A DNA stretch of 64,000 nt from NCBI RefSeq assembly GCF_003334405.1, contig NZ_QOWM01000003.1; one strand, given 5' to 3'. How positions within the stretch are numbered: the stretch's first letter is position 1; each line of letters opens with the position of its first letter. The position numbers and the translations under genes were made by a program. Under the pieces are notes generated by a model. It was not told the DNA's origin. It saw nothing but the letters and a program-made list of their open reading frames with translations, and did not search any database. The DNA is from Escherichia coli (GTDB lineage Bacteria > Pseudomonadota > Gammaproteobacteria > Enterobacterales > Enterobacteriaceae). Shown piece after piece: positions 13,288 through 47,800 of this stretch.

Positions 13288-13386
13288 CGTTGTCACCAGA
13301 AAAGTGTGACGCATATTGCTTTTGGTCATTATCTGCACAGTAAACGGTGGTATACTGTGCAGGTCTTGTCTAAAAGCGAGGATGCT

Positions 13387-13575
13387 ATGTCTACTCAACT
13401 TGATCCCACCCAGCTGGCCATTGAATTTTTACGCCGTGACCAGAGCAATCTTTCACCTGCCCAATATCTCAAACGTCTGAAACAACTAGAACTTGAATTT
13501 GCTGACCTGCTTACTCTCTCTTCTGCTGAATTAAAAGAAGAAATCTACTTTGCCTGGCGTCTGGGCGTGCATTGA
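13387..13575 (+). CDS. ydiH: small uncharacterised protein
   Basis: ORF track 13306..13575 (89 aa); trimmed to the MSTQLDPTQ start at 13387 (62 aa). Confidence 0.6.
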   Translation: MSTQLDPTQLAIEFLRRDQSNLSPAQYLKRLKQLELEFADLLTLSSAELKEEIYFAWRLGVH

Positions 13576-13769
13576 TCCTGACTTAATGCCGCAAGTTCGC
13601 CAAATCGACCTGGATTAACCTCCGTCCAGGTTCGATGACCTTCTTAATACTGCTTATCTACCGCCTGATATTGTTCAAAAATAATACTAATCGCAGTTTG
13701 TGTTAAAACGGCGGGTTAGCTTTATGAGATTATTCTTATCGCCCCTTCAAGAGCTAAGCCACTGAGAGT

Positions 13770-13843
13770 GCCGGAGATAAGCGCCGGATGGGGTAGAAAC
13801 CCTTAAGCCTGTGTCGCACAGACTTAAGGGTTTTCTTATTTCT
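13770..13843 (+). ncRNA. rydB: candidate small RNA ending in an intrinsic terminator (possibly RydB)
   Basis: Stem cccttaag/cttaaggg (13800-13830) followed by TTTTCTTATTT, preceded by a short ccgg...ccgg hairpin, in the ydiH-sufA intergenic region where RydB is described; the 5' end is a guess. Confidence 0.35.
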
Positions 13844-14062
13844 GAACGCTGCACTTTTTTACCTATCTCTTAAATAGTCATTTTCAATACAACTTTTTCT
13901 TTTTCATCACAGCCTTAATGCTCCTTAGATAATAACCATTATCTAACAATGAGATACCTAATTCTTAGCGTGCCTGTTAACCCACACATCAGGGTCTATG
14001 CTTATTAAAAGCAGGCAAAAAGCATGTTTTACGGTAAAGCCCCTGCGTTTGCTGGGTTGAAC

Positions 14063-14077
14063 TGATAATCATTATCA
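14063..14077 (+). promoter_or_regulatory. Fur box in the suf operon promoter
   Basis: tgataatcattatca, a near-perfect match to the GATAATGATAATCATTATC Fur consensus, about 45 bp upstream of the sufA start. Confidence 0.75.
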
Positions 14078-14122
14078 CTAACATGCTGTTATACGCTGAA
14101 AGCGATGAAGTGAGGTAAATCG

Positions 14123-14491
14123 ATGGACATGCATTCAGGAACCTTTAACCCACAAGATTTCGCCTGGCAAGGCTTAACGCTGACACCCGCAGCGGCGATA
14201 CACATCCGTGAGCTGGTGGCAAAGCAGCCGGGTATGGTCGGCGTGCGCTTAGGCGTGAAGCAAACGGGCTGCGCGGGCTTTGGCTATGTGCTCGACAGTG
14301 TTAGCGAGCCGGACAAAGACGATCTGCTGTTTGAACACGACGGCGCGAAGCTGTTTGTCCCGCTGCAAGCGATGCCGTTTATTGATGGCACGGAAGTCGA
14401 TTTCGTTCGTGAAGGACTTAATCAGATATTCAAATTTCACAACCCTAAAGCCCAGAATGAATGTGGCTGTGGCGAAAGCTTTGGGGTATAG
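14123..14491 (+). CDS. sufA: Fe-S cluster A-type carrier
   Basis: 122-aa ORF with C-terminal CGCGESF motif; first gene of sufABCDSE. Confidence 0.9.
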
Positions 14492-44880: not shown

Positions 44881-47800
44881 ATCCCCAATCCAGCCCTTGT
44901 GGCGAACTTGAAAATCCCGCCTCACGCAGCAGCGTAAACATCGGCGTTTGCCGGACCGGTAGATCATTCACTTCTGTTAGCGTAAAGCGCAGCCGTGGTT
45001 CGCGACGCAGTGCGGTAGTCAGCGCGTGGAAAACCTCTGGGGCGAGTAATTCCTCTTTTTCCTGCCAGACCAGCATTTTTTTGCCACCTTGCGCCAGATA
45101 GAGTAACAATTTGCCGCCAGAAACGACCACCAGCGCACCCGCCCGACGCGTTGGAACCAGCGTTGCCGGATGTGCAGGCCAGGGCAGAAGATTTCCCCAC
45201 ACATTAGCCGGATCGTTGGCAGAGAGCGCCACTGGTGTATAGTGGCGCGTTTGCGTGGCTTGTGTCGCCAGATCGCGCAATCGGTCAATAGTCAGACGTT
45301 CAGCGAATTGCGCGCCACCCAGACCTTCTACAAAACGACCTCGCATAATTCGCCCGGAGTCTTCCATACTTCGACAAAGCGTTTGCATCGATGGAAACCC
45401 GCCAGGGATATTTTCGGCTATCACCGCCTGACGACTGATGATGCCGTAGCGGTCGAGCATATTTTCCGCCAGCGCCAGCATCCTTTCGGTATCGTTTAGT
45501 GGCTCCACCTGCAATAACGACCAGCGTCCAGCCAGATTTGGTGTGTTGTAAGATACCCGCGGCGAGACGGGTTGCGCATAGACAGGACGTCCACGACGAG
45601 CCCGGTGACTGCGGCGAGTTGAGGTGCGTGCGTTGGAACTGCTGCGGGTGAGGGCGCGTAACGGTGCCCAAATGTCGCTGGTGATGACGCCTTGCCAGAC
45701 CAGCGCCCATAACGCCTCTTGCAGGGCAGAGAGATCAACCGATTCGCCGATTTTGTCGCGTATCCGTTGGCTGATTTGTTGTGCAAACCAGGCTCCTCCG
45801 TCAGCCAGAACAGCGACTATCGCTTGTTGCAGCGCCGAACGATTCGCCTGATCCGCTTCGGCGGGAGTGAACGATTCTGCAGCATATTCCTGTAGATGCA
45901 GTGCCACCAGGCCGTCATCTTCACCCAGTTTTTTTTGCCCCGACCAGATAACCGCACCGGTTGCCAGTAATTCATCGAGCATTTCTGACGAATAGTCGCG
46001 TACGCGGGCAGGCAGGATCTGGCTTTCCCAGAGTGAGGCGGGTAAACCGACTCCGGCAAGCTGTTCGATCACCCGCATCACGCCATCTACGCCCTCATAA
46101 ACGCCTGGCGATGTTGAGGCAAAGAGCGCCGGGCTACCATCGGTGGCGGGTAATACGCCCTGACGTTCCAGCAGCAATCGCGCATAGGTCGTGGCTGCAA
46201 CGGGACGCGTCGCTTCTCTGGCGGCTTGCAGCGAGCGCAAACGCAGACGACGAAATACTTCATCGCTCACCCAGATGTCTTGTTGCAGATTCATCACCAG
46301 ACCCTGTTCACGCAGTTGCTGAAGCTGCTCTTCGACAATGGCAATACCGAGACTAAACTCATGAGCCAGTTGTTCAGCCGTGACCAGAGCATGAGCCCGG
46401 AGATAGCGCAGAAAGAGGTCGCGAAGCGGGTAACTGACTCTATGTAAATAAATCTCTGGCAATGACTCTGGTAGTCGTACGCCGAGGGCATCACGCAGCC
46501 TGGCGGCATCATCCATACAGGCAAGACGCTCCTGTCCGCTAATCATCGCTGGGAAGATTCGTTTTACTGCAAGAAGATTTTCCAGATACGACGCAACCTC
46601 TTCACTGCTGCCTGTATGCCGTTGCGCCAGGTCTTCAACGGTCATTGGCCCCAGTTCGCGCAGCAGGTCGAACAATCCTTCTTCACCTTTCGCTCTTCTG
46701 CCAGGAGCCAGTCGTTGCAACTCTTCTTCCACCTGGCGAATGACCTGCGGGTCGAGTAATTCCCCCGGATCGACCTGTCCGAGTAGATTGCGCAGTAACT
46801 CGCTGTCCAGCGACAGTACGGATGCCCGGCGCTCTGCCAGCGGGGCGTCGCTCTGGTACATAAATTCCGCGACATAGCCGAACAATAAACTTGTGGCGAA
46901 AGGCGAGGGCGTAGTGGTCGTTACATCGGATATTTGAATTTCGCCACCGTTCAGGCGACGCATCAAACGTTCCAGTGCGGGAAGATCATAAACATCTTGC
47001 AGACATTCGCGTAGGGTTTCGAGAATGACCGGAAAATCCGGATATCCCTGAGCGATTTCCAGCAACTGACTGGCGCGCAGCCGTTGTTGCCAAAGCGGGG
47101 TGCGATGGCCCGGAGTGCGCCCCGGCATTAATAATGCCCGCGCGGCGCATTCGCGAAAACGGGCGGCGAAAAGTGCCGAGCTGCCTACCGCCTCGCGGAC
47201 AATTTGCAGCAACTTTTCTGGTTCAAACAAAAAAATCGCGGCATCGGGCAATTTACCATCGGTGTCAGGAATACGTGCAACAATGCCGTCATCACTGGCG
47301 ACCACCGACGCGTCAGCGCCCCATAGCGCATGTATTCGCCCGGCAATCGCCACCGCCCAGGGTTCATGCACCCGTCTTCCATAGGGAGAGTGCAAAATAA
47401 TACGCCAGTCACCAATTTCATCACGGCACCGTTCGAGGACCAGATGGCGACTCCCCGGAACGATGCCCGTCGCGTTGCGCTGCTCCTCAATCAACCCCTG
47501 AATATTGGCGATCGTATTTTCTTCTGCCAGCCACGGGGGAATAGTCCCGGAAAAGAACGCGCCATCCGCCAGCAAATGAAGAAAATCGCCGATCATCTCG
47601 CCTAATTCAGCCGGACGTCCGTTACCTTCACCACGCCAGAAGGGGAGCCGGGCAGAACGACCCGGAGCAGGAGTCACAATCACCTGATCGCGGGTGATTT
47701 GCTGGATCCGCCATGAGGTAGCGCCGAGAGTGATAATGTCGTTCACCCGCGACTCATATACCATCTCCTCATCCAGTTCACCCACCCGCCGCGAACCGGC

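Follow-up and report, generated by a model that had tools for sequence, protein, structure and literature searches.

The rydB gene and the sufA promoter in the ydiH-sufA spacer of Escherichia coli, and RydB-like sequences on phages and plasmids

Genes and elements of the ydiH-sufA spacer

We analysed the spacer between ydiH and sufA in a 64,000-nucleotide (nt) stretch of Escherichia coli DNA (contig NZ_QOWM01000003.1 of assembly GCF_003334405.1; "the window" means this whole stretch). The genes ydiJ, menI, ydiH, sufA and sufB all lie on the plus strand, as do the elements of the spacer described below unless stated otherwise. RefSeq annotation mapped to the window places the upstream neighbour ydiH (62 amino acids) at 13387-13575, and sufA, the first gene of sufABCDSE, is annotated at 14123-14491. 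The 1.2 kb around the features of interest is 100% identical to E. coli K-12 MG1655. The spacer holds the gene for the small RNA RydB and, downstream of it, the sufA promoter (PsufA) with its Fur box. It is very probable that these are two independent units, each of them already described. An earlier note, made from the sequence alone, proposed a terminated small RNA and a Fur box at this place. As written, that finding re-discovers textbook features and thus matters little. RydB and the suf Fur box are already known, and the only novel part is the phage-associated family considered below.

RydB was identified by a match of 81.6 bits (E = 4e-19) to the Rfam model RF00118 at 13741-13801, covering model positions 1-61 of 61; the gathering threshold of the model is 50 bits. 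The K-12 record NC_000913.3 has a rydB ncRNA (b4430) at 1764713-1764780(-), which corresponds to 13729-13796 of the window and lies between ydiH and sufA on the sufA strand. The full-length model match and this annotation bear out the suggestion of the earlier note that the small RNA might be RydB. The gene, also known as RF00118, b4430, tpe7 and IS082, is RydB by model, synteny and its 61-nt size, and the window itself differs in nothing. Only rydB was found in an Rfam scan of the region and of the phage variants, mir-1278 and asX4 being far below threshold. No divergent RydB-like copies were found elsewhere in the window, and no paralogues of one divergent type (L147) were found in E. coli genomes. 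Of 5426 complete E. coli genomes, 5422 contain the sequence; in E. coli, rydB is a core gene, present once and not adjoined by phage genes.

Boundaries, structure and maturation of RydB

The published Term-seq tables of Adams et al. (2021) contain a single rydB 3' end, at NC_000913.3 1764708(-), given for at least two of three growth conditions. This position is 13801 in the window, a mapping confirmed by the printed 61-nt context, and it coincides with the end of the Rfam model. There is no 3' end at 17646xx, the location of the downstream U-tract, in these tables. The Term-seq scores for rydB (2.2e6 and 4.1e6) are in the range of transfer-messenger RNA (tmRNA; 0.9-2.2e6) and CsrB (1.2-3.9e6), above 6S RNA (0.4e6) and far above Spot 42 (0.04-0.09e6). 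The abundant RydB is thus a 61-nt RNA at 13741-13801, as indicated by the Rfam model, the Term-seq 3' end, the overlap with b4430 and covariation; its 5' end is placed by promoter geometry and the start of the model. RydB was first reported in 2001, when Wassarman and colleagues reportedly saw a Northern band of ~60 nt, with which a 61-nt RNA agrees.

These boundaries do not bear out the ~70-nt transcript at 13770-13843, ending at the terminator, that had been expected. That interval takes in the 3' half of RydB together with the downstream hairpin, and RydB starts ~30 nt further upstream. Both of the plus-strand hairpins claimed there do exist, as gccggagataagcgccgg at 13770-13787 and a stem at 13796-13834 (the coordinates given for the T-run were off by 1 nt). 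Since 13801, at the base of the terminator hairpin, is the sole mapped 3' end, the first hairpin is internal to RydB and the second lies outside the abundant RNA. As a by-product, two annotation problems came to light. The curated coordinates of rydB (13729-13796) do not coincide with the boundaries given by Rfam and Term-seq (13741-13801), and so conflict with the 3'-end data. The Prokaryotic Genome Annotation Pipeline (PGAP) has no feature at rydB in the K-12 PGAP record and the 12 RefSeq genomes sampled, and thus leaves the gene unannotated in the RefSeq E. coli sampled.

Covariation indicates that the core folds as an outer stem (P1) that encloses two hairpins, the variable P2 and the invariant P3. 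P1 pairs 13741-13745 with 13790-13794. The invariant AGAGCU is at 13750-13755, and its last three bases (13753-13755) pair with 13767-13769 to form P2. The internal helix P3, gccggagataagcgccgg, is the first hairpin of the earlier note, and a 3' tail of 7 nt ends the RNA. Among 26 chromosomal homologues, 46 core columns are invariant and covariation within the core is confined to the outer stem, where C:G is changed to U:A in Leclercia and Silvania and A-U/U-A pairs occur in Pseudenterobacter. Both P1 and P2 covary in an extended alignment of 100 rows (53 distinct) fitted to a covariance model built here. It contains 121 double-change cells, compared to 35 in shuffles (0 of 500 shuffles reach 121), and has a covariation score of 0.30, compared to at most 0.10 for controls with slid partners. 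Double changes occur at 6 of 7 P1 pairs and at all inner P2 pairs. P3 is invariant in the extended set because it was the key of the second viral search, and it is uninformative on covariation; the invariance of AGAGCU is not owed to the method of collection. A P1-length control with mismatched partners failed to discriminate (means of 4.2 and 6.25 bp under a lenient algorithm), and covariation was relied on instead.

Transcription of rydB probably starts at G13741 from a sigma-70 extended -10 promoter, TG-a-GATTAT, at 13725-13733. The TG, A(-11) and T(-7) are invariant in the 26 chromosomal homologues, all of which keep aTGaGAnnAT upstream of G13741, and TGAGAnnAT also precedes the plasmid and phage copies of RydB. 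By the geometry of extended -10 promoters, the start would be 7-8 nt downstream, at G13741, which is also the start of the Rfam model. An upstream element, CGCAGTTTGTGTTAAAA (13692-13708), was identified in the alignment of the 26 loci, where CGCAnTTTGTGTTAAAA at -49 to -33 of rydB is kept throughout. CGCAGTTTGTGTTAAAA is too distant from the -10 to be a normal -35, and it is present in the Klebsiella, Rahnella and phage copies.

Two observations were made in passing on this promoter region. The E. coli strain L9 (NZ_CP142044.1) has ISApl1, an IS30-family element, inside the extended -10 (13726-13728; 3-bp overlap of the flanks), separating the TG from the hexamer in what is a natural disruption of the rydB promoter. 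The FNR/CRP-like half-palindrome cTGAT-N4-TTCAA is at 13665-13678, centred near -70 of rydB, and its TTGAT half is kept in Citrobacter and Salmonella. FNR is named as a candidate regulator of rydB in a 2024 preprint.

Downstream of the mature 3' end is an intrinsic-terminator hairpin with its U-tract (13796-13844), which belongs to the rydB unit. It consists of a 17-bp interrupted stem (13796-13834) followed by TTTTCTTATTT. The fold has -21.4 kcal/mol (z = -6.2; 0 of 200 shuffles as stable), and 11 of 16 pairs show compensatory changes among the 26 homologues. A simple terminator scan gave no match at 13796-13844 because it does not tolerate the single internal C/A mismatch. The clean intrinsic terminator that had been claimed is real and covarying; it is interrupted by this one mismatch and lies beyond the end of the mature RNA. 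Unrelated hairpins at variable distance take its place in C. koseri, two other Citrobacter strains, Pseudenterobacter, Pantoea, Klebsiella and phages. In every case a hairpin of some kind comes after the core, yet it lies outside the conserved RNA.

The structure and its covariation suggest that polymerase stops at 13796-13844, and published 3'-end mapping indicates that the 61-nt core (13741-13801) is what accumulates. The hairpin would then be removed after termination, as for 4.5S RNA, 6S RNA, tmRNA and RNase P RNA. The lack of listed 3' ends at the U-tract fits fast removal of the hairpin and is not proof of termination there, and termination followed by hairpin removal is the simplest reading. 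The terminator, which ends ~18 nt before the OxyR-type block at 13862-13891, may also shield the suf control region from strong transcription of rydB.

The sufA promoter and its independence from rydB

The Fur box is TGATAATCATTATCA at 14063-14077, an exact 7-1-7 palindrome (15/15 specified positions) that belongs to neither strand. It is the only zero-mismatch match to TGATAATNATTATCA within the 64-kb window, where the chance expectation for matches with up to two mismatches is 0.24. It agrees with the 19-bp consensus GATAATGATAATCATTATC at 16/19 positions on the minus strand. The box ends 45 nt upstream of the sufA ATG at 14123, as had been claimed for a near-consensus site. The -35 of PsufA is TTGAAC, inside an IscR type-2 site (Mettert & Kiley, 2021; PMC8561392). 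In the window these are at 14057-14062 and ~14038-14062. The palindrome therefore follows directly and takes up the 16-bp spacer to TAACAT (14079-14084), the probable -10 as judged by geometry and invariance across genera. If TAACAT is the -10, transcription of sufA would start near 14091.

The box is well conserved in 80 sufA loci from ~30 genera of Enterobacteriaceae, with no mismatch in 47, one in 25 and two in 8. GGTTGAA of the -35 region is kept in 80/80 loci, and the block GGTTGAAsTGATAATCATTATCACTAACAT is nearly invariant. In Intestinirhabdus alba (L058, 2843-3000), the suf promoter and the Fur box are intact, and a G+C-rich insertion of ~100 nt lengthens the 5' untranslated region of sufA such that the box is 143 nt upstream of the ATG.

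A Fur peak in chromatin immunoprecipitation sequencing and Fur-dependent expression are documented in the literature for sufABCDSE, as are activation of PsufA by apo-IscR and its repression by Fe-Fur. A review describes repression by Fur, a far-upstream OxyR site and a requirement for IHF, which lies between. According to this literature, Fe-Fur would bind the palindrome at 14063-14077, which by its sequence spans the entire -35/-10 spacer. In the established model, Fur on the box excludes RNA polymerase and competes with apo-IscR, whose site holds the -35, and OxyR and IHF act on PsufA from upstream. Iron-responsive control of suf by Fur, also part of the earlier note, is thus what the literature describes for this operator. 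The Fur box half of that finding is correct and already known.

Two other palindromes were considered. A second Fur-type palindrome, TGATAATAAATATCA, with one mismatch, is at 23770-23784, between fumD (ydhZ) and ydhY and ~250 nt upstream of ydhY. The inverted repeat TAGATAAT-AACC-ATTATCTA (13926-13945) was rejected as a second Fur site because it has the wrong spacing and 3 mismatches to the 7-1-7 pattern, and because it is kept in Escherichia only; its conserved part belongs to the IHF-like site.

Also present upstream of PsufA is a CTAT-N7-ATAG-N7-(C/A)TAT block at 13862-13891, which matches the far-upstream suf OxyR site by motif and position. All 23 aligned genera have retained it, and where rydB is displaced it remains with sufA. 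A probable IHF-like site, TAACAATGAGATA, is at 13944-13956, suggested by the alignment and by the requirement for IHF stated in the literature; it is a perfect WATCAANNNNTTR in Citrobacter and other genera. Further downstream, at 13990-14011 (~-100 to -80 of PsufA), is a block, CAGGGTCTATGCTTATTAAAAG, seen in ~60/80 loci and almost invariant from Escherichia to Cedecea and Atlantibacter. It has no assigned factor in the sources consulted and might be an NsrR half-site.

The promoter-like ATCACA-16-GATAAT (13906-13945) overlaps the inverted repeat TAGATAAT-AACC-ATTATCTA, and its hexamers are conserved in Escherichia only. Work with genomic systematic evolution of ligands by exponential enrichment (SELEX; PMC3946193) put them forward as a 'constitutive' suf promoter. 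The SELEX peak could equally be explained by the nearby rydB promoter.

Two hairpins lie further upstream. One is in the ydiH 3' region (13604-13636; -16.5 kcal/mol, z = -3.97), is conserved only in Escherichia and, by its fold and conservation, is a probable terminator or stabiliser of ydiH. It accords with the claim that the terminator downstream of RydB has no protein gene to serve, as ydiH ends at 13575 and has this hairpin of its own. The other is a long imperfect hairpin, TGCACAGTA...TACTGTGCA (13317-13378), between menI and the ydiH start codon, which surfaced solely as the sub-threshold mir-1278 match.

The rydB gene is separable from suf. It was found within 3 kb in 25 of the 80 sufA loci, which belong to Escherichia, Citrobacter, Salmonella, Leclercia, Pseudenterobacter and Silvania, and was undetectable near suf by blastn, nhmmer and the covariance model in the other 55. 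In the C. amalonaticus group, ~2 kb encoding a LysR-type regulator and a metallo-hydrolase-like protein separate ydiH from rydB. Between the terminator of rydB and the OxyR block, 1.5 kb of inserted DNA encode a transporter on the opposite strand in Salmonella, and this junction is interrupted by 1.3-2.0 kb in the C. freundii group. Given these insertions on either side of it, rydB is an autonomous unit, whose promoter, core and terminator move as a module. With rydB split from suf in these genomes and also present at unrelated loci, the sequence comparisons offer no support for a connection between rydB and the Fur box.

RydB-like sequences on plasmids and in phages

A blastn search of plasmids identified the RydB core with the TGAGAnnAT motif in several unrelated places. 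It is present on 510-530-kb Pantoea megaplasmids, adjoining a gene for a KGG-domain protein, on a P. stewartii plasmid, and on Rahnella megaplasmids, where a DNA methyltransferase and a holin-lysozyme-Rz cassette flank it. In K. pneumoniae it is chromosomal, at another locus, downstream of patD.

A search of IMG/VR with a strict pattern of 38 specified bases identified the canonical core in 43 viral contigs. A holin and/or endolysin is encoded 170-1300 nt downstream on the same strand in 41 of them; one of the others is truncated and one has no match to the lysis queries. Q-like antiterminators of three PHROG families (753, 79 and 127) and NinG are encoded upstream of the viral cores. As the same core follows three unrelated Q families, it is unlikely to be a Q-utilisation site. 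No -10-like element with A2/T6 that would indicate a sigma-dependent pause was found in the first 25 nt of the phage cores. Also rejected were a nut-like site (its AAGAGC equals boxA GCUCUU reverse-complemented, with the wrong strand and element order) and a mimic of type I-E or I-F CRISPR repeats, where the resemblance is superficial on inspection.

The P3 18-mer alone matches 96 viral stretches, all but one of which are full-length matches to the covariance model. This model, built from 19 sequences, finds 99 full-length family members at 25-77 bits. RF00118 misses most of the phage relatives: one divergent type (L162) scores 27 bits, and three others (L140, L145 and L137) are undetected at E < 0.1. 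The divergent types keep AGAGCU and P3 and have wholly different outer stems, including UCCCUU/AAGGGA, GUCCCG/CGGGAC, UGGCGU/ACGCCA, UUGUGGUUU/AAAUCACAA, GUUGUGUCU/AGGCACAAC, GCGUUCAA/UUGAACGU and others.

Genes for tRNAs are located 45-400 nt from the element on the same strand in 22 of 88 viral loci scanned (21 contig stretches and the cultured phage locus), and these are the only tRNAs in those 22 stretches. One type (L103) has the order Q, promoter-terminator pair, tRNA-Gly, tRNA-Asn, a RydB-like core without its own promoter, terminators, holin. The cultured Yersinia phages vB_YpM_39, 41 and 44 encode tRNA-Met, then a RydB-like variant, then a methyltransferase-like gene. In other viral contexts the element adjoins a CI-like repressor, precedes the gene for the small terminase subunit, or separates a UmuC-like polymerase from a NinI-like phosphatase. 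Of the viral contigs L177 (8764-9117) and L163 (9519-9760), one has a RydB-like gene with a homologue of the small RNA STnc100 (78.8 bits) ~100 nt on, both between a Q-like gene and the holin, and the other has two different RydB-like copies ~180 nt apart.

The canonical query had no match in ~50,000 GenBank phage genomes, and no link between RydB and phages was found in the searchable literature. We considered the M3 RNA of phi80, a classic RNase P substrate, as a RydB-like RNA and rejected it, as the phi80 record annotates M3 as an oop homologue at the cII/O junction. Nor did the covariance model detect a RydB-like element in the 16 kb of the phi80 right part (30000-46150) that span the Q-to-lysis region.

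From these data, RydB may be the chromosomal representative of a wider, undescribed family of ~55-65-nt three-helix RNAs, mainly of temperate phages of Enterobacterales, a proposal whose chances we judge to be evenly divided. The proposed features are a P1 of arbitrary sequence, the invariant AGAGCU, a variable P2 and the invariant hairpin GCCGGAGAUAAGCGCCGG. The members lie mostly between the Q antiterminator and the holin or endolysin, often in tRNA clusters, and some are on Pantoea and Rahnella megaplasmids. If this is true, the RNAs are matured like stable RNAs, with removal of the terminator or flanking transcript, and act through a conserved partner in phage-host biology. Such a family would explain the near-identical core across three bacterial families despite unrelated flanks. 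RydB has been without a known target or regulator for 25 years, and it now appears to be one member of a bigger family of structured RNAs, found above all in temperate phages where the late-gene leader and tRNAs lie. For the function and the partner of RydB, the phages vB_YpM_39/41/44 of Yersinia and the prophages of Rahnella are concrete systems to study.

Possible roles of RydB and comparison with known systems

With low confidence, we propose for RydB a role in trans as a structured, stable RNA whose action depends more probably on a protein partner than on base pairing of the classical kind, with Hfq and a retained terminator. Its mature 3' end at 13801 is upstream of the 3' arm of the hairpin and of the U-tract, and so a U-tail bound by Hfq is not retained. 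The absence of the terminator from the mature RNA argues that RydB is not a typical small RNA of the Hfq class. A crude duplex search gave no signal for pairing with the sufA leader (85% of shuffles as good), and this target was rejected. The only reported effect of RydB is that its overproduction lowers rpoS expression, and a 2024 study lists no known targets or regulators. Several points weigh against this account and against the 61-nt boundaries. RydB has no known protein partner, and the 61-nt core is not unusually stable (z = -0.01). The K-12 annotation begins 12 nt upstream of G13741, the predicted 5' end, and Salmonella annotators give RydB as 105 nt, which would include the terminator. 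The missing Term-seq peak at the U-tract could be due in part to thresholds or ligation bias. Finally, the duplex search found pairing with the rpoS leader that is better than random (-54.9 kcal/mol compared to -45.4 +/- 3.5 for shuffles; 1 of 300 shuffles as good), which keeps base pairing among the possible modes of action.

The 105-nt annotation and the rpoS duplex are also what an alternative would predict, in which RydB is a ~100-nt Hfq-dependent small RNA that keeps its terminator and U-tail and pairs with the rpoS leader, the 61-nt species being a breakdown product. The strong, covarying terminator directly after the core and the effect on rpoS fit this alternative as well. We consider it unlikely, however, because the sole Term-seq 3' end, with a very high score, is at 13801 and none is at the U-tract. 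Moreover, RydB was enriched only 2.5-fold by Hfq co-immunoprecipitation in Salmonella, on few reads (10 versus 4); in phages and other taxa, unrelated sequences at varying distances stand in for the hairpin after the core; and some phage copies lack a promoter of their own and are placed after tRNAs. Intramolecular structure does not enter into the duplex calculation, which uses a 5' GCCCC that is paired in P1. A cis-acting role, in which the plus-strand structures form a suf leader, the rydB promoter reads into sufABCDSE and the hairpin is a regulated attenuator, would make sense of the common strand of rydB and sufA, their distance of 320 nt and a terminator just upstream of the suf control region. 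It is highly improbable given the insertions that split rydB from suf in Salmonella and the C. freundii group, the presence of rydB at unrelated loci, the 55 of 80 loci where the suf control region is complete and rydB is not found within 3 kb, and a mapped sufA promoter 300 nt downstream.

That the conserved region encodes a small protein from an ATG at 13725 (MRLFLSPLQELSH) can practically be dismissed. The ATG is kept in most species and opens a 13-codon reading frame in K-12, but a 1-nt indel between it and the core shifts the frame of several Citrobacter and of Salmonella, GTG stands in its place in two species, and the phage copies lack it. The TG is accounted for by the extended -10. 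This candidate was rejected because the reading frame is not conserved. Of a different kind is the reading of RydB as the chromosomal copy of a phage-associated stable RNA, captured from or donated to temperate phages, matured like the tRNAs that accompany it, and with a role in phage-host interaction rather than in iron or RpoS control. It is compatible with the account of two independent units in the spacer and extends it. The viral contigs with the core between Q-like or NinG genes and lysis genes, the stretches with the P3 18-mer, the adjoining tRNAs and the variant in cultured Yersinia phages favour it. On the other side are the nearly universal single-copy rydB of E. coli with no phage neighbours and the failure of the canonical query in GenBank phages. 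The RNA may have passed in either direction between phage and chromosome, and its function in phages is a prediction. We hold this reading tentatively, its prospects falling a little short of even.

PsufA has the same architecture as that published for Fur, IscR, OxyR and IHF, without difference, and the site in the window is the described site. It also resembles known Fur-repressed sigma-70 promoters, in which a perfect palindrome overlaps the core promoter.

The Q-to-lysis interval of lambdoid phages is known to produce RNAs, including the tRNA clusters of Shiga toxin (Stx) phages and short PR'-tR' transcripts such as the lambda 6S RNA. StxS of Stx phages is a PR'-tR' transcript that affects RpoS. 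The phage RydB-like genes share this slot and the direction of the lysis genes, and they often adjoin tRNAs. Many have a constitutive-looking promoter and a terminator within 75-140 nt, and the phi80 annotation shows an analogous layout of pR', terminator and holin. Unlike the PR'-tR' transcripts, the RydB-like elements do not directly follow Q (gap of 240-5500 nt), and they have no sequence similarity to the late leaders of lambda, phi80 or P22.

RydB differs from the housekeeping RNAs with processed 3' ends in that it has no known essential function, partner or processing enzyme and is absent from many Enterobacteriaceae. It is like ffs (4.5S), ssrS (6S), ssrA (tmRNA) and rnpB (M1) in that its 3' end is not at the U-tract. 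As in these RNAs, the Term-seq signal is very high and the end lies a few nt beyond the closing helix. In Salmonella, RydB is repressed by guanosine tetraphosphate (ppGpp) alongside SsrA and SsrS.

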